From the NCBI GenBank assembly GCA_902795355.1, contig CADBKZ010000004.1, positions 65,029-129,028 of the forward strand: a stretch of DNA of 64,000 bases, written 5' to 3'. The position numbers were made by a program, and so were the translations under genes. The notes under the pieces are model-generated. The model did not search any database, was not told the origin of the DNA, and saw nothing but the letters and a program-made list of their open reading frames with translations. The stretch comes from an uncultured Ruminococcus sp. GTDB lineage: Bacteria; Bacillota; Clostridia; Oscillospirales; CAG-272. This document shows positions 18,966 to 27,567 of the stretch, piece after piece (positions within the stretch are counted from its first letter, which is position 1; each line of letters begins with the position of its first letter).

Positions 18966-19218
18966 GTCGGTGTCCCTTTCTTTGTCGGTTTTCCGAATTA
19001 TAACCATATTCTATCAGATTTTTCCACGAAAGTCAATTTTTTATCCACATAAAAACGACATTTTTCCACATTCAAGAGACAATAGTGAATTGAAAACCGG
19101 CCCATCCCGTGTTAAAATGGAATAGGTAACGGGAAAAAGCGCGGAAGAGGAAACGCGGCGGTTTCCGTTGTTGCCCGAAAAAACTGACTTTTTTTCAGTT
19201 GGAAGTGACTTCCTGTGA

Positions 19219-19247
19219 TTGACAAAAAAACGGGAGTGTGCGATAAT
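19219..19247 (+). promoter_or_regulatory. Sigma-A-type promoter of the EEP lipoprotein gene
   Basis: TTGACA-N17-GATAAT with TGc extended -10. The palindrome GGAAGTGACTTCC (19201-19213) lies just upstream of the -35 box. Confidence 0.5.
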
Positions 19248-19343
19248 TTTAATGGAAATTATTTTTTTGGAGAAAACCATGAAAAGAAAAGGAAAAAACA
19301 GGAAAGTTTGTTCATTTTCTCAGAAATCGGGGGAGGTGATTCT

Positions 19344-21059
19344 TTGAAACGAAATCGAATGCCAATCCGCGCGGCGTGTTTCTTTCTCGGCGGATGGCTG
19401 ATGCTGTGCGGCCTGTTTTCCTCATGCGGGAAAGAAAGCAAGGAAAACCAAAAGGAGACGGACGAGGTTGTACAAACCGAAATGTTGCTCTCGTCCTGCG
19501 CCTTGGTGTACCCGAGCGGCGCAAACCAAACGCTCAAAACCGCCGTAACGAACCTTTGGCGGGAATTTTCCAACCGCTTCGGCGTTACTTTGGAGCTATC
19601 CGACGATTTTGAAGCCGCGTCTGCCGACGCGCCCGAAATTCTCATCGGCTACACATCGCGTCAGGAATCGCGCGAGGCCATGGAAGCAATCGGCTACTAT
19701 GATTGGACGGTGCGCGTCGTCGGCTCCAAGCTCGTGGTCGCCTCGCATACCGAGGAATCGCTCTTCGCGGCCGTCGAGTCGCTCCGTACCGAGCTGCTGG
19801 CGGAAGGAAAGGACGAACGCGGCAATCCCGCGCCAATCCTGACCGCCGAAAAAACGCACCGTTCCGACACCTATGAATTCTTCTTCGATGAAAACCCGTT
19901 TTCGGCATATCGCATCGTTTATCCCGATGGGAACGACCTGCTCAAACAGAAAGCGGACCGCATGGCGCAACTTCTCAAAAAGCGGTTTTCCGCAACGATC
20001 CCCGTGGTCAGCGACGCCGAACCCGCGCAGGAATCCGAAATCCTGTTCGGGGTTACGAACCGCACCGCCTATTCCGCGTACTACACGGGCGCGGAAGCTC
20101 CGGACCGGCTGCATTATGTAATCTCGGCCGAGGGAAGCCGCGTGCTGTGCGTCGGTACCGACAGCCGGACCGCCGATTCTGCCTGCGAACGCTTTATAGA
20201 GCTGTTTTTCGGCGAGGTGGGATATTCCTATGAATGGAATCTGCCGGACGGCTTCTATCTTTGCGATGTTGCCCACGCCACTGATGCCGACCGCACCCGT
20301 GACAGCGGCGTTGACCTTCGGATTATGTCCTATAATATCCTGACGAGCGACTTTTCCGCCGAAACCGCCCCGTTCGGGGATCGGTGTCCCTATGTCGCTT
20401 CCGAGATCCTGTACTATCTTCCCGACGTTGCGGGCTTGCAGGAAGTTGGCGAAAACGAATACCGCCTGCTGGAAGCGGCCGTGGGCGACACCTACGCGTT
20501 CACCGATAAGCTCACATCCACCGGCGCGTACAGCTACACCACGCTCCTGTACAATAAAAACACCGTCCGCTTCGTAACCGGCGATAACACCCCCTATGTA
20601 AATGCGGGAAGCCCCCGCATCCGCCTGATGTCATGGGGGCTCTTCACGCACATCGAAACCGGCAAACGCTTCCTTGTGGTCAACACCCATTGGGAAGTTC
20701 ACGAAAACGATAAGGGCTACCGCGTGAAGCAATCGCAGGAAATGGCCGCGTTCGTCAACGAGCTTTCGGCAAAGTACCATTGCCCCGTGTTCACAACGGG
20801 CGACTTCAACACCCCCGAAACCGCGGACTATTTTCAGGAATACCTGACCGTTTCCGCCCAAAAAGAGGCGCGCTACACGGCAAAACGCATTGCAAACGCG
20901 AAATCCGACGCCGTAATCGATCATATCAACTATACCCCGAATCTTTCCGGCGCCGCCTGCCTCGAAGCCTTAACCTTCAAACTGATCCGGTCGGGCGAAA
21001 CCGTTCTCGGCTCGGACCACGACCCCATTTGGGCGGATTTCCGCTTTTCATCACCGTAA
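19344..21059 (+). CDS. Lipoprotein with unknown N-domain and C-terminal endonuclease/exonuclease/phosphatase (EEP) domain
   Basis: TTG at 19344 lies 5 nt after GGGAGGTG and gives KRNRMPIRAACFFLGGWLMLCGLFSSCG (lipobox). An ATG at 19359 is the alternative start. EEP motifs: IMSYNIL, GLQEV, NTHW, TGDFN, GSDHDP. Confidence 0.75.
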   Translation: MKRNRMPIRAACFFLGGWLMLCGLFSSCGKESKENQKETDEVVQTEMLLSSCALVYPSGANQTLKTAVTNLWREFSNRFGVTLELSDDFEAASADAPEILIGYTSRQESREAMEAIGYYDWTVRVVGSKLVVASHTEESLFAAVESLRTELLAEGKDERGNPAPILTAEKTHRSDTYEFFFDENPFSAYRIVYPDGNDLLKQKADRMAQLLKKRFSATIPVVSDAEPAQESEILFGVTNRTAYSAYYTGAEAPDRLHYVISAEGSRVLCVGTDSRTADSACERFIELFFGEVGYSYEWNLPDGFYLCDVAHATDADRTRDSGVDLRIMSYNILTSDFSAETAPFGDRCPYVASEILYYLPDVAGLQEVGENEYRLLEAAVGDTYAFTDKLTSTGAYSYTTLLYNKNTVRFVTGDNTPYVNAGSPRIRLMSWGLFTHIETGKRFLVVNTHWEVHENDKGYRVKQSQEMAAFVNELSAKYHCPVFTTGDFNTPETADYFQEYLTVSAQKEARYTAKRIANAKSDAVIDHINYTPNLSGAACLEALTFKLIRSGETVLGSDHDPIWADFRFSSP

Positions 21060-21076
21060 ACCGAAAAGGAGACCCT

Positions 21077-21895
21077 ATGAATTTACCAAACCAAATCATC
21101 CACCAAACCATTCCCCTCGCCGCGGGAACGGATGTCCGCATCCTTTCATGGAACATCCTCTCGGAAGAGCTTTCCCCCATCGCTCCCGACATTCGCGAGC
21201 GGATCGACCGCATTGCCGGAACCGTTCGCGCGCTTGCGCCGGACGCCATGGGCATTCAGGAAATTTCCGAAAGCGGCTATGCGCTGTTTGCCGAGAAATT
21301 GCCCGAGTATGTGTTTACCAACCCGAAAACCGCGGCGGGCGAATATAGCTTTACGGGGGTTGCCTACCGCCGCGACCGCTATTTGCTCACGGCCTCGGGC
21401 ATTGAAAATTTCGACCGCGGGAACGCCCGCATCCGCCTGATGAATTGGATTCATCTGGAAGCCGTCGAAGGCGACCGCAAATTCACCCTTGTCAGCACGC
21501 ATTGGGATCGCCATGCGCGCAACCGCCCCGCCGATTCGGACCAGATGGCGCGCTATGTTCTTTTGCTGACGGCGCGTTTCGGCGACCCCGTAATCTGCAC
21601 GGGCGATTTCAACACGCGGGAGAACGCGGAAATTTTCCAATCGTTTCTTTCTGTTTCGGGGCAGAGGGACGCCAAATATCTCGCCCCCTCGGTGGTAAAC
21701 CTTTGCTTTACGGGGCATCCCGTCGGTTCGTTTGTTCCCGAAAGCGAGGAAGAAACGTCCATCGACCACATCACGGTGGCGGATGGAATCCGCGTCCTGC
21801 AATATGAACAAATGATCAACCAAACGGTAGTGGACGTCAGCGACCATTTTCCCGTATGCGCCGATCTTCGCTTCCCGCAAGGGGAGATAAGATAA
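21077..21895 (+). CDS. Endonuclease/exonuclease/phosphatase family protein (no signal peptide)
   Basis: ILSWNIL, GIQEI, STHW, TGDFN, VSDHFP. Paralogous to the C-domain of the preceding gene (about 30% identity by eye). Confidence 0.8.
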   Translation: MNLPNQIIHQTIPLAAGTDVRILSWNILSEELSPIAPDIRERIDRIAGTVRALAPDAMGIQEISESGYALFAEKLPEYVFTNPKTAAGEYSFTGVAYRRDRYLLTASGIENFDRGNARIRLMNWIHLEAVEGDRKFTLVSTHWDRHARNRPADSDQMARYVLLLTARFGDPVICTGDFNTRENAEIFQSFLSVSGQRDAKYLAPSVVNLCFTGHPVGSFVPESEEETSIDHITVADGIRVLQYEQMINQTVVDVSDHFPVCADLRFPQGEIR

Positions 21896-21918
21896 ATTCA
21901 AATGGAAAAGAAAGGAGA

Positions 21919-23403
21919 ATGATTTCCATGAGATTACCCGTTCGACGATGGCTTTGCGTTGCGTTTGCGCTTCTGTTTGCGGTATCCGCCTTTGCGGGAT
22001 GCGGGAAGAAGCCAAAAGAAACGGCGGAGTCATCCCAAACAACCGAGCCCGTAACCAAAATGGAGTGGGGGGACGATCTGCCCTCGTCGCTCGATTTCGG
22101 CGGCACGGATTTCCATGTTTATGCGTGGCAGGAAACGCAGGAATCCGATTGGCAATCCGAAATGAGCTCGGACATTATCAACCAAGCGGTGTGGAGGAGC
22201 CGCGAGGAGGTGGCGGACCGCCTGAACGTTTCGTTTGACATTTCGTTCACCCCCGGAAACTGGGATAACCGCAACACCTTTGTTTCCAACCTCAAAACCT
22301 ACATGATGAGCGGCATGCAGTTCGACCTTGTCGGGCAGTATACGCCAACCGCGGCCGTTGGGGCAATGGAAGGGCTGTATACCGACCTTTCCGCGCTCCC
22401 GTACCTGAATTTCCATTCGGTGTATTGGCCCGGGAACTTCCTCGAATCCTGCAACATCGGCAACCGCGTGTATTTCTGCTCGGGGGATATCACGCAGTCG
22501 CTTATCACGCAGCTCGGCGTTATGTATATCAACCTCGATCTTTGGGAGGACATGGGCATTTCGGAAAACATCTATGAATTGGTGGAATCCCGCGAATGGA
22601 CCATGGAAACCATGCAGTCGCTCCTGCTCGGCCGCATTGGAATCTCGGACGACGTTGCATCCCAGAAATACGGCCTGCAAATGGAAGGGCGCATCGTGTA
22701 CGATAACCTCTTCTATGCCGCGGGGCTGAATTGGGTCACGCACGAAGAGGACGGCACGCTCTTCCTTTCGGAAGAAATAACCGCAACAAAAGCGGGCGAA
22801 TGGTATGAAACCTGCCATAAGCTCCTGTGGGAGAACGCCGACGTTTGCTCCCAGGACGACCCGCGTTACGGAGCGAACGACCCGCGTTACGGCATTACCA
22901 TTGCGGATACGTTCATGGCGGGCAAATCCATCGCGTTCATGGCGTTGAACCTGAACAGCGCAAAAACCTATGTCCGCGACGCGTCGTTCGATTTTGCGGT
23001 GGTTCCGTACCCGCTCTATAACAGCGAGCAAACCGACTATCATTCCATAACGGGGTACAGCGTTTCCATGTTCAGCGTACCAACAACGTTCCAAAGCGCG
23101 TCCATGTCGGGCGCGGTGCTGGAAGCGTTGGGTTCGTCGGGCTACCGGAACATCACGCCCAAGGTATACGACCAATCGTTCCGTCAGCGTTTCCTGCAAA
23201 CCGAGGAAAACGCGCGGATGCTCGATCTGATCCACGATTCCGTAACCTATGATACGGGCCGCATCTTCGCCGACGACATTGCCGTTTTCAACATGTATCG
23301 CAACGCGTTTTATAACACCTATTCATGGACGACGCTTTACACCGGCCGCCATGAAACATGGGAAGCGAACGTTGAAAAAGTGAACAACAAGCTCGGCGGT
23401 TAA
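21919..23403 (+). CDS. ABC-transporter extracellular solute-binding lipoprotein (large family-1 type), orphan
   Basis: AAAGGAG RBS. Signal plus lipobox LLFAVSAFAGCGKK. About 495 aa, with composition typical of LplA-like sugar-binding proteins. No permease or ATPase genes adjacent. Confidence 0.75.
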   Translation: MISMRLPVRRWLCVAFALLFAVSAFAGCGKKPKETAESSQTTEPVTKMEWGDDLPSSLDFGGTDFHVYAWQETQESDWQSEMSSDIINQAVWRSREEVADRLNVSFDISFTPGNWDNRNTFVSNLKTYMMSGMQFDLVGQYTPTAAVGAMEGLYTDLSALPYLNFHSVYWPGNFLESCNIGNRVYFCSGDITQSLITQLGVMYINLDLWEDMGISENIYELVESREWTMETMQSLLLGRIGISDDVASQKYGLQMEGRIVYDNLFYAAGLNWVTHEEDGTLFLSEEITATKAGEWYETCHKLLWENADVCSQDDPRYGANDPRYGITIADTFMAGKSIAFMALNLNSAKTYVRDASFDFAVVPYPLYNSEQTDYHSITGYSVSMFSVPTTFQSASMSGAVLEALGSSGYRNITPKVYDQSFRQRFLQTEENARMLDLIHDSVTYDTGRIFADDIAVFNMYRNAFYNTYSWTTLYTGRHETWEANVEKVNNKLGG

Positions 23404-23425
23404 TCTTTCGGTTTTCCGCGCGGCG

Positions 23426-24040
23426 GAGCAAAGTGACAGGCAAGCGGAAGCCTCATCCACCGCTACGCGGTCCCCCTTCTCCGATGGGAGAAGGCTCGTG
23501 ATGGTTGCGGATAGTGGAAATAAAGCAAAATGCGATATTTTCCAATGTGTTGTAACTTGAAGCCTTCCCCTTTGGGAAGAGTTCGTGCGGCAAGCGGCGG
23601 TGAGCGGGTTCTCCATTAGCCTTCCCCTTGGGGGAAGGTGCCGAGCTTGCGAGGCGGATGAGGCCTTCCAACGGGAACTTGCATGAAACCTCCACCTATG
23701 GCAAAACCGGCAAAGCCGGTTTATTGAGGGGAACCGCGAGCGAAAGCGAGCGGTGGAAGGAGTTTCCAATGGGCAGTTCCTTCAAGGCTCCCCCTCGGGG
23801 GGAGCTCTCGCGAAGCGAGTGAGAGGGCTTTTGAACCCTCTCCGGCTGCTTGCAGCCTGACCTCGTAATCGGCTTGCCGATTTTCCCAAGGGCGAGGCGA
23901 AGTGACAAGCGAGCGGTGGAAGGAGTAAAAAACTCCTACCGACTTGTCGCTCCGCTCCAAGCCACCGTCTTGCGAATGCCGTGCGCGGCATTTTCGCTCG
24001 GTCACGGCGCGGCTTGTCACTGGCGCCGCCGCTTCGCTAC
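23426..24040. repeat. Mosaic of short GC-rich stem-loops and degenerate direct/inverted repeat units (REP/BIME-like)
   Basis: At least 10 hairpins with 5-8 bp stems and 3-8 nt loops, for example 23475-23494, 23620-23638, 23787-23805, 23704-23722 and 23975-23992. Exact 17-mer GCGAGCGGTGGAAGGAG at 23746 and 23909. GTGACAAGC at 23902 pairs with GCTTGTCAC at 24012. Confidence 0.7.
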
Positions 24041-24202
24041 CCAAGGCGGAGATAAAGAAACAGCCAAACGGAAAAACCATGCGCGCGGCGCGCCGAAAGA
24101 ACGCAATCCATTTCTTTTATCCTGTTTTATCAGTCGTGATCGCTTTTCGCGATCCAATCAAATTTTTAATAAAAAAACAAAAATCAAAAGGAGACTTCAA
24201 TC

Positions 24203-25765
24203 ATGAAAAAAGCGTTTATTCTGATTCTGTCGGTCGCAATGCTTCTCTCCTGTTTTATCCCTGTTTGTGCCAGCGCAGAGGAGCCGACGGCAATCTCAAC
24301 TCGCGAGCAGTTTGAAGCAATTACTTCAACGGGCAACTATTATCTCACCGACGATATTGATTTCGAAGGGAAGGTCTACTCCACCTATGTTGCTCCCTGC
24401 GAGGACGATGCCAACAAACAATTCAAAGGCACTCTTGATGGCAGAGGACACACGATTCACAATTTTTCAATTTCCACATCGGAAGCAACCGGCGGTATTT
24501 TCAAGGATACCGCGAATGCAACGATTACCAACCTTAACATTGGAACCCAATCCAATCCCGTTTCTATTACGGGTGCGGCTACAACAACGGCTGTTGGAAC
24601 GATTTCCAGCGCGGCATACGGCCCTAACGTTTCCAATGTAACCGTTTGGGCTAACATTTCGGTAACAGGCGTTACATCATCCGGCGGTTCCTATGGCGGA
24701 TTTTTTGGAACACATAATAATATCAACGTAACAAACTGTGTTATGAACGGCTCTGTTTCCGTAAGCACTACTGCAAATGATATTTTTGCAGGCGGTTTTT
24801 CGGGCAAAACCCAAAGACAATGGCCGTATTACACCAATTGTATCAACAATGCGGATGTTACGGTTGTTTCCTGCGCGCGAACCGGATATGTCGGCGGTAT
24901 CGTCGCCTTTGCCACCACTGCAAATAGTTACACCCCTACCATGACCTTTACGGGATGTATCAACAATGGGACTTTGGATACCAGCGGGGCAAAGAGAATG
25001 AATCGTTGCGGCGGTATCGTTGGCGATAATCAAGGCCACCAAAATACGGTTATCACAAACTGCTTTAACTTCGGAACTTTGAATGGCCGTACAACCGCGA
25101 ATGCAAATAATGGTGTTGGCGGCATGATTGGTTATGCTTCTACTGCCGTTTCCATTACAGGGTGTGCCAACTATGGTACATTCAATGCGGCAACCGATGA
25201 TTGCGGAGCAATATATGGAAACGGAGCTGGAACGATTACCGCTTCCAATAACTTTGATCGCTCCGGCACGCTCGATGTCGGCGACGTCAGCGCGAGCGTA
25301 AAAGTCAAAGGCGTGCAGTATACGGCGGTGAACGAGCATTACAAGGCGACCCCCGAAGCCGAGGAAACGTCCGTGTTTGATATTCGCTTTGTGGGTACCG
25401 TGGATTCGCTGGAATATGCCAAAGTCGGGTTCCTTGTGGAAGTCTACTACACCGCGGACGGCGAGGTGCAAAACCGCTCCGTTCCCGTGGAATGCAAGCA
25501 TGTTTATGATTCCATCTATGCCACCGTTGGCGAAACGGCCGAGGAAATCGACGTAACCGACCTTGGCGAAACGGCGGGCGAGGCCTACATTGTGGCTCTT
25601 TCGGTCAACGCCGTTCCCGCAACCGCCGCGGCGGGCACCGTAACCTTTATCTTCCGCGCGTTCGCCGAGGACGCCGAGGGCGAAGCAATATACGGAAATG
25701 CCGCTATGTATGCGTTCCAAGCGGGCAGCCTTGTATTTTCCAGCGCGGTTCCTTGCAGTCTTTAA
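24203..25765 (+). CDS. Secreted GLUG-motif repeat protein
   Basis: Signal peptide MKKAFILILSVAMLLSCFIPVCASA. N-terminal I.T.EQF..I...GNYYLTDDIDF...FKGTLDGRGHTIHNF module. Repeated GG(I/F/M)(V/I/S)G units (GGFFG, GGFSG, GGIVA, GGIVG, GGMIG). Confidence 0.7.
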   Translation: MKKAFILILSVAMLLSCFIPVCASAEEPTAISTREQFEAITSTGNYYLTDDIDFEGKVYSTYVAPCEDDANKQFKGTLDGRGHTIHNFSISTSEATGGIFKDTANATITNLNIGTQSNPVSITGAATTTAVGTISSAAYGPNVSNVTVWANISVTGVTSSGGSYGGFFGTHNNINVTNCVMNGSVSVSTTANDIFAGGFSGKTQRQWPYYTNCINNADVTVVSCARTGYVGGIVAFATTANSYTPTMTFTGCINNGTLDTSGAKRMNRCGGIVGDNQGHQNTVITNCFNFGTLNGRTTANANNGVGGMIGYASTAVSITGCANYGTFNAATDDCGAIYGNGAGTITASNNFDRSGTLDVGDVSASVKVKGVQYTAVNEHYKATPEAEETSVFDIRFVGTVDSLEYAKVGFLVEVYYTADGEVQNRSVPVECKHVYDSIYATVGETAEEIDVTDLGETAGEAYIVALSVNAVPATAAAGTVTFIFRAFAEDAEGEAIYGNAAMYAFQAGSLVFSSAVPCSL

Positions 25766-25795
25766 CCCCGTATCGTGAAAAGGAGGAATTTTCAG

Positions 25796-25924
25796 ATGAA
25801 ACATTATCAAACCCCCGATATGGAGTTGATTTCCATTCTCCAAAACGATATTCTCACCTATTCCTACCAAGCCGGAGAAATCGGCGACGGAGATGTTGTG
25901 AATTTCTTTGATGTGTTCGAATAA
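25796..25924 (+). CDS. Candidate 42-aa acidic peptide (MKHYQTPDMELISILQNDILTYSYQAGEIGDGDVVNFFDVFE)
   Basis: Below the 60-aa track cutoff. Strong AGGAGG sits 9 nt upstream of the ATG. It fills the gap between two same-strand genes. No homolog recognised. Confidence 0.35.
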   Translation: MKHYQTPDMELISILQNDILTYSYQAGEIGDGDVVNFFDVFE

Positions 25925-25943
25925 CCGAAAAGGAGGGATTCCT

Positions 25944-26321
25944 TTGAAGAAATTTTTGATCCTTGCGGCGTTGATCCTGACCGCGGTTTGCCTGCTCGCT
26001 TCCTGCGGCGGCAAGACCGGCGGCGCGGAAACGGCTTCCGCCGAGGAAAGCGGTACCGCGGAGCCGGAGAGCGAAACCACGCGTGCGCGCGTGACCCACT
26101 CCACGCTCCCCGCCATCACCACCAACGAGGGGAATGAACCGTCCGGCTCGTCAACGGCGGGGAACGTTACCACCCAGCCGGAAAAGAGAACCACCGCTTC
26201 GGTGGAGATCATCACCGACGGTTTCTTCGTCCCCGAACGCTCCACGGAAGAGGGCGCGAGCCTGTTTGTTACCGAGGACGCACGCGAGTATGAAACCTAC
26301 CCGTTGATCGGTTTGAATTAA
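25944..26321 (+). CDS. Small lipoprotein
   Basis: TTG start 6 nt after AAGGAGGG. LKKFLILAALILTAVCLLASCGG lipobox. Low-complexity T/S/E linker, then a ~45-aa C-terminal module. Confidence 0.6.
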   Translation: MKKFLILAALILTAVCLLASCGGKTGGAETASAEESGTAEPESETTRARVTHSTLPAITTNEGNEPSGSSTAGNVTTQPEKRTTASVEIITDGFFVPERSTEEGASLFVTEDAREYETYPLIGLN

Positions 26322-26334
26322 GGAGAAAGCAACC

Positions 26335-27567
26335 ATGAAAAAAATTGTTTCCGTTGCGCTCTGCTTGGTTCTTGCGGCGTTGTTCTGCTTTGGCGCCGCG
26401 GCCGAGGGCGCAACCACCGCGCTGACCGCCTACCAAAGCGGAACGCTGACCTTTGCCGAGACCACCGCGGGCGCGGAAGCCGCCTTTGACGGCGACAACA
26501 AAACCGCGTTCGCAGGCTCGATTACCGGCCGCTTCGCCAAAAGAAGCGTTCTGATGGGCGTCAGCGTTCGCGCGGGCAAAAAAATCCGCAATTTGCGCGT
26601 CCTCGGCTCCGAGGACGGCGCGGAATGGATGGAGCTGTTCTCCGCGGAAAAAATCAGCACCGTGGCGGTTTTCGGCTACAACGGCGCGCTCGACGAGGCG
26701 GGAGAGGAAAACTACGCTTCCAGCAACCTTTCCCAAATGTTTACCTACGCGCTCCGGTATCTGCGCGTGGAGTTGGAGTACGGCAGCATTGCCGAGCTGA
26801 CGCTCCGCGGCTATGAAACCGACGTAACGGGGAAACTTGCCCCGCTGGATCCGTCCTATGGCGACGGCAACGGCTGGACTTCCACAAGATCCTTTTATAA
26901 CGACGGCCGCACGCGATATGTGTTCGACCATTGCGTTGGAAGCGGCGACCACGGCGAAGCGTTCTTGGGGGACGCTACCGCGGAGCAGCACGCGTTTATT
27001 GCCGCGAAATTTGCGCTGACAACGCCCATGACCGCCCTCGCACTCCTGCATAAGAGCGAGGATAAGAACTACAACCGTTGGAACGGCATGATTGTGGACG
27101 TTTCCGCCGACGGCGAAACATGGGTCAACGCCTACACGTTCCCGAGCAACGCGGCCGATACCATGGCGTCCACCATCGCGGGCCGCGAAATGATGTTCTT
27201 CTATTTTTCCGGCGAGAATAACTATCGTTATGTGCGCGTAACGGGCGCAAAGTATTCGGCGGTCGGCATTTCCGAAATTGACGTTTACAACGCCGAACCC
27301 GAGGGAACCGCGCCCGTAAACGTGCTTTCAGGGTGGAACGGCGACCCCTACCAAGGCGAAGCCGCACCCGCTGAAAGCACAGAGAAAACGACCTTTGCAA
27401 CCGATCCCGTAACCGAGCCTGCCGCCACCGAGTCGGCGCCCGCAACCACCGCGGCGTCGGGCGGCAAGTCGTCGGGCGGGTGCGGAAGCATTGTAGGCGG
27501 CGCGGGCGTTCTGCTCGCGCTCGTCCCCGCCGCGTGCCTGCTCCCCCGCCGCAAAAAGCGGAAGTAA
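26335..27567 (+). CDS. Secreted protein with two discoidin (F5/8 type C)-like domains and a C-terminal GGCGS-TM-RRKKRK tail
   Basis: Signal peptide. AFDGDNKTAF and GISEIDVY type motifs. T/P/A-rich linker. The last 36 aa are SGGKSSGGCGSIVGGAGVLLALVPAACLLPRRKKRK. Confidence 0.65.
   Translation: MKKIVSVALCLVLAALFCFGAAAEGATTALTAYQSGTLTFAETTAGAEAAFDGDNKTAFAGSITGRFAKRSVLMGVSVRAGKKIRNLRVLGSEDGAEWMELFSAEKISTVAVFGYNGALDEAGEENYASSNLSQMFTYALRYLRVELEYGSIAELTLRGYETDVTGKLAPLDPSYGDGNGWTSTRSFYNDGRTRYVFDHCVGSGDHGEAFLGDATAEQHAFIAAKFALTTPMTALALLHKSEDKNYNRWNGMIVDVSADGETWVNAYTFPSNAADTMASTIAGREMMFFYFSGENNYRYVRVTGAKYSAVGISEIDVYNAEPEGTAPVNVLSGWNGDPYQGEAAPAESTEKTTFATDPVTEPAATESAPATTAASGGKSSGGCGSIVGGAGVLLALVPAACLLPRRKKRK

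Follow-up and report, generated by a model that had tools for sequence, protein, structure and literature searches.

A probable lineage-specific insertion of dispersed repeats, akin to BoxC/PIT/TMECO triplex-motif elements, in an operon spacer of an uncultured Ruminococcus sp.

To our knowledge, neither a function nor a mobilising enzyme has been assigned to the BoxC/PIT/triplex-motif repeats in the approximately 30 years since they became known. The present work deals with a block at positions 23404-24202 of a stretch of 64,000 nucleotides (nt) of DNA from an uncultured Ruminococcus sp. (GenBank assembly GCA_902795355.1, contig CADBKZ010000004.1), which is referred to as the window (C4:65029-129028 in the contig numbering used here) and belongs to a 2.16-Mb assembly that is 97.4% complete. 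The block very probably represents a lineage-specific insertion, in which selfish dispersed repeat DNA of about 0.7 kb entered a former spacer of about 55 base pairs (bp) between two co-transcribed genes, and the repeat family that composes it is best described, as judged from its sequence, as a variant of the BoxC/PIT/TMECO triplex-motif repeats with a putative hairpin in loop 2.

The closest described repeats were defined by Holder et al. (2015) with the consensus CCCTCNCCC-N3-6-GGGNGAGGG-N3-GGGNGAGGG, as class II purine-motif intrastrand triplexes (PMC4666352). In Escherichia coli MG1655, 23 copies of TMECO were reported, all of them intergenic, without strand bias and some of them arranged as inverted pairs; promoter or terminator activity was not found for them, and they were linked to genomic rearrangement (PMC4666352). 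The ITxF search of these authors allowed loops of 1-6 nt, and that of Hoyne et al. (2000), as given in the same article, loops of 0-10 nt (PMC4666352). The words Firmicutes and Clostridia are absent from the main text of PMC4666352.

The block lies within an operon (window 19215-27567) that comprises a divergent AraC regulator, two genes of the endonuclease/exonuclease/phosphatase family, the gene of a protein of 491 amino acids (aa), a gene of about 520 aa (497-515 aa in relatives), a small gene and the gene of an F5/8-type-C protein. Orthologues of the 491-aa protein with 63% and 52% identity were found in operons of identical gene order, and in the syntenic operons of the loci L166, L167 and L168 the spacer between this gene and the next one measures 54-55 bp, compared to 799 bp here. 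Moreover, the final ~38 nt before the ATG align across species (ATAAAAAAACAAAAATCAAAAGGAGACTTCAATC-ATG vs. ATATAAAAAAACAAAAGAAGGAGCGAAATCTC-ATG of L166). Therefore, about 0.7 kb has been added at this site, which is empty in the relatives. The downstream gene is poorly conserved, with matches in 2/40 genomes, and is unsuited to a genus-wide comparison of the locus. A 100% identical 491-aa protein is encoded on seven public contigs, and the block itself, identical or with one base different, was found downstream of the same gene (100% identity) in four independent public assemblies, three of the four contigs breaking inside it. As four independent assemblies carry it after the same gene, the block is no assembly artefact.

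Comparison of the block with its own genome by BLAST revealed that 23409-24078, and only this part, is repeated elsewhere, with 381 further matches that establish a multi-copy family rather than a single-copy sequence. The copy number is 40-90 along 23422-23916, falls to ~3 along 23577-23613 and is 7-10 along 23920-24075, whereas 24079-24202 is single-copy and AT-rich and has the ribosome-binding site of the following gene at its end. The family is also carried by most species of the genus, by gut and rumen Oscillospiraceae, by Acutalibacteraceae and by other Clostridia. Thus, the description of the block in the initial annotation, made from the letters alone, as non-coding and composed of short, GC-rich hairpins and repeats that lie in both orientations, similar to the BIMEs of enterobacteria, was supported, and the finding that it had named as a refutation, units that are single-copy in the genome and absent from relatives, did not occur.

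The repeat unit is 42-50 nt long and consists of a pyrimidine block (Y), a loop of 3-6 nt, a complementary purine block (R1), one or two bases, a second, short hairpin whose sequence varies (hp2, of C(GNA)G type) and a further purine block (R2); in copies aligned with their flanks, example blocks are Y CCTTCCCC, R1 GGGGAAGG and R2 GGATGAGG. In at least 10 distinct R1 classes, R2 is the mirror image of R1, that is, it reads as R1 reversed, T being accepted in place of A. This rule was assayed by scanning Y/R1 hairpins without prior bias in the genome and in all fetched loci, and by scoring the segment downstream as antiparallel (triplets G.G-C, A.A-T and T.A-T) or parallel to R1. At least 7/8 triplets were obtained in the antiparallel vs. 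the parallel sense in 168 vs. 24 cases for R1 GGGGAAGG, in 123 vs. 26 for R1 GGAGAAGG and in 13 vs. 0 for R1 AAGGGAGC. All eight triplets are valid when R1 GGAGAAGG is followed by R2 GGATGAGG, AAGGGAGG by GGAGGGAT, GGGAGAGG by GGAGAGGG and GGAGAGGG by GGGTGAGG; further pairs are GAGGGAGG with GGAGGGAG and TGGGGAGG with GGAGGGGT. A terminal C in R1 is always accompanied by T at the matching position of R2. The third block therefore fits reverse-Hoogsteen triplets, with 7-8/8 valid in at least 10 block classes, and co-varies with R1. A mirror repeat on one strand would not be explained by Watson-Crick pairing or by a dimeric duplex-binding protein, and would match the requirement of a purine-motif intrastrand triplex.

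The second hairpin is maintained as well. Among 171 A-type units (72 distinct spacers), a perfect hp2 stem of at least 4 bp was present in 117, compared to 60 when shuffled, and one of at least 5 bp in 112, compared to 12. Of 126 distinct spacers from other genomes, 94 possess a perfect end-anchored stem, with 59 stem sequences represented (13 distinct stems in the genome studied here); GAA, GCA, GGA and GTA account for most of their loops, and a C-G pair closes the loop in 73/87. In the B-type unit of the block, hp2 reads TCTCGC-GAA-GCGAGT. As the stems are intact over many sequences, the structure is kept by compensatory variation while the sequence drifts.

Complete units were defined by four regular expressions that represent the main subfamilies, and 272 of them were detected in the genome, compared to none in a shuffled genome. 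A census of 16-mers revealed ~118 clusters with a length of 100 bp or more, many of them 0.6-1.25 kb long, which amount to 48.8 kb or 2.3% of the genome, and contigs frequently end within such clusters. Genes were called by codon usage by a caller that is still wrong on the atypical gene downstream of the block, and, as the gene calls are imperfect, the orientation statistics were limited to confident genes. The strands are balanced (139 units plus and 133 minus, with no bias on any single contig), and the units between co-directional confident genes follow the direction of these genes in 81 cases and oppose it in 83. Repeat blocks occur in tandem, divergent and convergent gaps. Nearly all units (268/272) lie outside confident genes; the other four, at 31-156 nt from the ends of open reading frames (ORFs), probably reflect mis-called starts or stops.

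The features of the block and of its immediate flanks are collected in Table 1.

Table 1. Modules, units and flanking genes of the repeat block, in window coordinates.
Feature	Coordinates	Strand	Remarks
Upstream operon gene, 491 aa counted from later ATG	21928..23403	+	Listed ORF, without Pfam match
Left arm of 19-nt imperfect inverted repeat (TCTTTCGG...CGCGCG) bounding the repeated region	23404..23422	.	79% complementary to 24082-24100
Junction module accompanying A(-) unit	23422..23450	-	46-60 genome copies; 28 BLAST alignments begin at 23422
Complete unit A(-), minus strand CCTTCTCC-CATC-GGAGAAGG-GGGACCGCGTAGCGGT-GGATGAGG	23451..23494	-	Unit regular-expression match
68-nt core between head-to-head units	23495..23562	.	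38-57 genome copies
Degenerate A-like unit; CTTCCC/GGGAAG hairpin intact, mini-hairpin and third block decayed	23563..23613	+	
Complete unit A(+), CCTTCCCC-TTG-GGGGAAGG-TGCCGAGCTTGCGAGGC-GGATGAGG	23620..23663	+	Unit regular-expression match
Composite module: CCTCCACC block, AAACCGGC-AAA-GCCGGTTT hairpin, GAGGGG block, GCGAGCGAAAGCGAGC, GGTGGAAGGAG	23670..23766	+	15-50 copies
24-nt leader/junction (TTTCCAATGGGCAGTTCCTTCAAG) preceding B(+)	23763..23786	+	Direct-repeat family D1
Complete unit B(+), GCTCCCCC-TCG-GGGGGAGC-TCTCGCGAAGCGAGT-GAGAGGG	23787..23827	+	Unit regular-expression match; 60-80 genome copies
C-type variant unit, minus strand CGCCTCGCCC-TTG-GG[AAAATCGGCAAGCCGATTAC]GAGGT-CAGGCTGCAAGCAGCC-GGAGAGGG	23836..23899	-	Read from sequence; 41-54 copies
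Second copy of AAGCGAGCGGTGGAAGGAGT plus junction	23900..23926	+	Exact 20-nt direct repeat of 23744-23763, family D4
Low-copy repeat module with AATGCCG-TGCG-CGGCATT hairpin	23927..24078	.	7-10 genome copies
Right arm of bounding inverted repeat (CGCGCG...CCGAAAGA)	24082..24100	.	No second genome copy
Unique AT-rich leader with ribosome-binding site AAGGAG of next gene	24101..24202	+	Single genome copy; last ~38 nt correspond to former spacer
Downstream operon gene, 520 aa	24203..25765	+	Listed ORF, without Pfam match

Three units in the block are complete, A(-), A(+) and B(+). The A(-) unit has 8/8 triplets valid by the purine-motif rule, and units of its subtype flank a DUF559 gene on both sides in a related species (L028). 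The exact 44-nt sequence of A(+) occurs 11 times in the genome, in keeping with recent amplification, and 71 alignments begin at 23618. In the degenerate unit between them the copy number drops past 23577, and the longest match of the composite module covers 83 nt at 98.8% identity (C4:16584-16666). The C-type unit has an extra hairpin nested within its first purine block and stands tail-to-tail with B(+), 8 nt apart (23828-23835), a pairing that accounts for the GAGAGGG-N8-CCCTCTC 'hairpin' of the initial annotation. All ten stem-loops listed there were found where it had placed them, with perfectly complementary arms; one of them, AGGAGT-A5-ACTCCT (23921-23937), spans the left edge of the low-copy module. 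The exact 17-mer reported at 23746 and 23909 is present and belongs to a longer repeat of 20 nt (23744-23763 = 23907-23926, repeat search), and the remaining repeat pairs stand as listed, except that GGAAGCCTCATCCACCGC begins at 23446 instead of 23447. The gap holds no credible ORF, as had been stated, its three longest ORFs being without Pfam match even at E <= 1. The flanking genes are genuine; the labels 'solute-binding' and 'GLUG' given to them could not be confirmed, as neither protein matches any Pfam family. In the minimum-energy fold of the RNA, the outermost stem is made by the two arms of the bounding inverted repeat; as termini of an element they are ruled out by the single-copy right arm, and we conjecture that they may derive from an ancestral post-stop hairpin cut in two by the insertion.

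Units are joined at preferred distances. The gap of head-to-head (-,+) units has its mode at 67-68 nt (23 of 41 pairs genome-wide), that of head-to-tail units measures 22-26 nt, and tail-to-tail units are separated by 22-26 nt or by ~90-117 nt. The order A+ B+ C- of the block is also found on contigs C17 and C23, and A+ B+ C- A- recurs. Given this recurring order and the segments of the block that match elsewhere over 119 nt at 97.5% identity and 191 nt at 91%, composites must have been copied too, besides single units.

The distribution of the units along the genome is far from even, and they cluster around the origin region. Five contigs that hold 15.5% of the bases (C16, C17, C18, C20 and C23) carry 192/272 units (71%), whereas nine contigs, together ~0.5 Mb, have none at all. 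C23 bears gidB, parB, dnaA and dnaN, with the contig end in a repeat, and C17 starts in a repeat followed by gyrB, gyrA and DUF559; as both contig ends lie in repeats, the two contigs are probably adjacent. Repeats of 0.3-1.1 kb each occupy the dnaA-dnaN, gyrB-gyrA and gyrA-DUF559 junctions. Contig order is otherwise lacking, so an effect of the origin and a local spread from the DUF559 gene are inseparable. Repeat blocks were seen to interrupt the series dnaA, dnaN, a 367-aa ORF, gyrB and gyrA (C23:44299-49738; C17:1-10441), the one in the dnaA | dnaN gap being 1135 bp long (C23:46495-47629). An AT-rich module of ~70 nt (CAAGTTTTAACAGATAAAAGTTATGGTGTGTAAATCA...) was also observed after A units ending in GGATGAGGAGAG, at no fewer than four sites: L009:1100-1210 (G000:C17:10282-10392) and near C18:27610, C20:46060 and C17:35360. 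Immediately upstream of the DUF559 gene, one copy of this module occupies the middle of a large nested palindrome.

Across the species of the genus, the number of units ranges from 0 to 122 and the dominant hp2 variant is species-specific, a pattern that fits lineage-specific amplification. The dominant hp2 is GTCGCC/GGCGAC in genome G016, ACCACC/GGTGGT in G039, GGCGAG/CGAGCC in G032 and GACCGCG in G042. The geometry of pairs differs as well, being head-to-head with ~122 nt between units in G016 and tail-to-tail with 21 nt in G039. Taken together, the species-specific hp2 and geometry suggest separate bursts or concerted evolution. Beyond the genus, the A-type pattern (CCTTCYCC, GGRGAAGG, hp2, GGATGAGG) was found in at least 119 stretches of a species-representative collection, compared to a chance expectation roughly estimated at a handful to a few tens. 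Among the matches listed, the hosts include Oscillospiraceae, Acutalibacteraceae, Lachnospiraceae and Christensenellales, and further Xanthomonas, Rhodanobacter, Rhizobium, Sphingomonas, Acidobacteriota, Bacteroidales and others. In Proteobacteria and other phyla, TMECO-like blocks are combined with hp2 (CCCTCTCC-CTGTG-GGAGAGGG-TGGCTGCAGAGCAGCC-GGGTGAGG), and because of this combination the two forms look like a single family.

A candidate partner of the repeats is the DUF559 nuclease. The genome has one intact DUF559 gene (C17:10662-11048, 97 bits), placed between gyrA and a lipoprotein gene and 41 nt past a unit; the block in the window has no such gene inside. Small DUF559 genes were detected in 23/41 genomes of the genus, up to five in each, and at 16/23 small DUF559 loci a complete unit lies within 120 nt. 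At seven loci, 4-13 nt separate the end of the upstream unit from the start codon, with R2 in the position of the ribosome-binding site. Bracketing of small DUF559 genes by inverted units is common within the genus, where the association is real. The canonical cassette, in which a small DUF559 gene lies between two inverted units whose third blocks point towards the gene, is present in L028 (genome G036), in G039:C51 and, with C-type units, in L030, and partially in L018-L024 and L032. The G036 assembly contains just two A-type units, both of them bracketing the DUF559 gene. G039 has this cassette too, together with numerous tail-to-tail doublets that lack the gene and have a spacer of 21 nt, a situation that resembles, by analogy, that of an autonomous element and the miniature forms derived from it. 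In G042, 7/9 units are found at 19 kb or less from the orthologous gyrA-DUF559 locus, and in other families of Clostridia a DUF559 gene begins directly at a unit in 2/80 unit-bearing loci. Over the 41 genomes, the relation between DUF559 and the number of units is weakly positive (median ~5 with the gene vs. ~1.5 without), but it is confounded by incomplete genomes, kinship and the use of a one-subfamily pattern, and was not used as evidence. Most genomes of the genus also encode a separate protein of ~1250-1310 aa, one segment of which weakly resembles DUF559 (E about 1e-6 to 1e-7; for example, G011:C14:22187-22441 and G034:C48:69354-69599).

On these grounds, the DUF559 (Vsr-like) nuclease encoded next to gyrA may recognise or move the repeats, a proposal put forward here tentatively and with less than even confidence. 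Somewhat less probable again is the joint proposition that small DUF559 nucleases are the long-missing partner of the BoxC/triplex repeats, that they would recognise the folded unit and drive a mostly short-range copying, and that the single gyrA-adjacent gene would have seeded a runaway, origin-centred expansion in this genome. If this were true, the expansion would now part nearly all genes of the dnaA-dnaN-gyrB-gyrA region and would have split operons elsewhere, and the form with a hairpin in loop 2 would be the general, widespread version of the family, of which BoxC of E. coli would be a reduced form.

The mechanism that is proposed would operate as follows. On a single strand, Y and R1 would pair as a hairpin, hp2 would turn the chain, and R2 would fold back along R1 as a reverse-Hoogsteen third strand. 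Units are joined via fixed junction modules (22-26 or 67-68 nt) into palindromic composites that are copied blockwise. The repeats would act and spread at the DNA level via the folded single strand. The spread is presumed to be mostly local, which would explain the pile-up near the DUF559 gene. At the locus in the window the block is probably neutral or else partly uncouples the two genes.

Several observations weigh against this interpretation. Neither a target-site duplication nor an excision footprint was found at the edges of the block. The predicted triplex folding derives solely from sequence rules, and for TMECO itself the triplex was formed in vitro, stable triplexes in vivo being unsupported (PMC4666352). 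Subfamily B has only 6/8 valid triplets, and the hp2 of A(+) (GCCGAGC-TT-GCGAGGC) requires two G-A mismatches. As contig order is lacking, only C23 and C17 are demonstrably near the origin. Regarding the nuclease, the DUF559 gene of this genome is without canonical bracketing, its nearest unit being reversed and the lipoprotein gene following directly, and its adjacency to a unit says little on a contig in which repeats make up a quarter of the bases. Moreover, 78/80 unit-bearing loci of other genomes have no DUF559 within 8 kb, and four genomes of the genus (70-86% complete) in which no small DUF559 was detected carry 11-23 units.

The block shares a mosaic structure, both orientations and fixed linkers with classical REP/BIME elements, that is, palindromic units mobilised by a RAYT (IS200/IS605 TnpA family) on folded single-stranded DNA, and its intergenic inverted doublets resemble REPINs. 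The initial annotation had drawn this parallel. At the level of the unit it does not hold, as no RAYT/Y1 transposase (PF01797, Y1_Tnp) was matched in the 97.4%-complete genome, whereas control genomes were matched; furthermore, the units lack the GTAG/CTAC tag, have the design of a three-block mirror motif instead of a simple palindrome, and in the genus enclose DUF559 rather than a RAYT. A REP/BIME origin is thus very unlikely. Equally low is the probability assigned to functional protein-binding sites for chromosome organisation or replication, deliberately concentrated at the origin, despite the fact that the crowding of 71% of the units on 15.5% of the genome includes the dnaA-dnaN-gyrB-gyrA region and that the blocks CCTTCYCC, GGRGAAGG and GGATGAGG are conserved across phyla. 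The range of 0 to 122 copies within the genus and the hp2 variants of each species fit amplification and not conserved function, the units of G016 are scattered over many contigs, and dimeric duplex-binding proteins would not be expected to recognise mirror repeats.

The two readings in which the block acts as RNA were weighed together. As the flanking genes share one direction and are separated by just 55 bp in related species, the block is very likely transcribed, and a chain of hairpins in the mRNA could stabilise the upstream message or attenuate read-through towards the second gene, in the manner of the REP elements at malE-malF of E. coli. Moreover, the third blocks are Shine-Dalgarno-like and are found 4-5 nt before the start codon in DUF559 cassettes. 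The folding energy could be invoked in favour of this reading and also of a single long structured non-coding RNA gene of 0.7-0.8 kb, an alternative raised in the initial annotation that agrees with the absence of a coding signal. As RNA, 23404-24202 folded with z -4.9 compared to shuffles, and as single-stranded DNA, 23404-24080 reached -160.6 kcal/mol vs. -124.7 ± 5.3 for dinucleotide shuffles (z -6.8); 0/20 shuffles folded as well as the block, as DNA or as RNA, in programs that model only Watson-Crick and wobble pairs. In spite of these energies, no Rfam family passed its gathering score in the whole window, and none was over threshold for the block at E <= 10 (the weak matches to mir-483, LDH1 5'UTR, SMCR2 and BLi_r0872 were attributed to chance). 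No T-tract terminator was found after the coding-strand hairpins of the block, and a role as terminator or promoter was discarded, since the one promoter-like and the one terminator-like match lie on the minus strand and do not exceed chance level. Both orientations are equally frequent relative to genes, divergent and convergent gaps are also occupied, and related species are without the block. The mirror rule would be meaningless for RNA pairing, and purine-motif triplexes are stated not to form in RNA (PMC4666352). Together, the strand balance, the types of gap occupied, the lack of T tracts and the lack of RNA triplexes speak against both a dedicated RNA element and one long RNA. Moreover, every module recurs alone, with order and orientation changed, at more than 100 other sites, and the block is missing at the orthologous site. 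A cis-acting RNA is therefore considered improbable, with an incidental effect of the block on expression being possible, and a single long RNA gene, which the recurrence of the modules all but refutes, is the least probable reading of all.

The insertion of selfish repeat DNA thus remains the preferred reading, and it has several implications. The co-variation of R1 and R2 over at least 10 subfamilies constitutes comparative evidence that a three-stranded fold, beyond the hairpin, is maintained. The family extends from rumen Clostridia to Xanthomonas, Rhizobium, Acidobacteriota and Bacteroidales, and reaches more than 2% of the DNA in the genome studied here. The contrasts within the genus between cassette-only genomes, genomes with a cassette plus gene-less doublets and the massive origin-centred expansion found here, bear on the question of the enzyme. 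Furthermore, blocks of this kind break assemblies, yield spurious Arg/Gly/Pro-rich ORFs and can split operons, and are therefore worth recognising in the annotation of gut and rumen genomes.

Compared to known systems, hp2 is similar to extra-stable DNA mini-hairpins, typically with a stem of 4-7 bp, a C-G closing pair and a GAA, GCA, GGA or GTA triloop. The form C(GNA)G is that of unusually stable DNA mini-hairpins, and extra-stable d(GCGAAGC) and C(GNA)G hairpins were reportedly described by Hirao and colleagues in the 1990s. These are a structural motif, whereas the units described here are a repeat family.

The RNA motif Whalefall-1 (RF01762), a candidate small RNA from metagenomes, has a consensus with the same layout (CUCUCC, a loop, GGAGAG, a 23-nt insert and AGGGUGAGGAC). 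Its best matches in the block are at 23617-23665, which corresponds to A(+), and at 23784-23828, which corresponds to B(+), with 13.8 and 17.0 bits, respectively. Membership was rejected, as these scores compare to a gathering cut-off of 37 bits and 15 further unit-bearing loci of other phyla gave no match at cut-off. Unlike an RNA gene, the elements here behave as DNA repeats, and the Whalefall-1 'RNA motif' may be such a DNA repeat, too.

The similarity to the REP/BIME/REPIN elements of Enterobacteria and Pseudomonas comprises short GC-rich foldable repeats, mosaics with fixed linkers, inverted doublets and an intergenic location, also inside operons, and, as in REP/RAYT systems, a single-copy enzyme gene flanked by inverted units. 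In contrast to REP/RAYT, the flanked gene encodes a DUF559 nuclease (Vsr-like, PD-(D/E)XK), and the unit is a three-block mirror motif devoid of the tag.

The closest likeness is to BoxC/PIT/TMECO. As in these repeats, the units are made of three blocks, pyrimidine, purine and purine (class II), the third mirroring the second, and they are multi-copy, intergenic, free of strand or gene-orientation bias, often arranged in inverted pairs and highly conserved in sequence; G/C-rich blocks of 8-9 nt are shared with TMECO, and some units of other phyla carry the TMECO blocks themselves (CCCTCTCC / GGAGAGGG / GGGTGAGG). Unlike TMECO, in which loop 2 has 3 nt, loop 2 here has 10-45 nt and forms a covarying mini-hairpin, so that both published screens exclude this form by their loop limits and the units are invisible to them. 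The dominant blocks also differ (CCTTCYCC / GGRGAAGG / GGATGAGG), the units are assembled into mosaics of 0.4-1.2 kb, and the host is a member of the Clostridia with 272 units in 2.16 Mb, compared to 23 in E. coli MG1655. New with respect to the published definitions are, therefore, the hairpin in loop 2 and the co-variation evidence for the mirror rule, together with the scale and origin-centred distribution of the family in a Clostridia genome and the empty site that proves the insertion at this locus.

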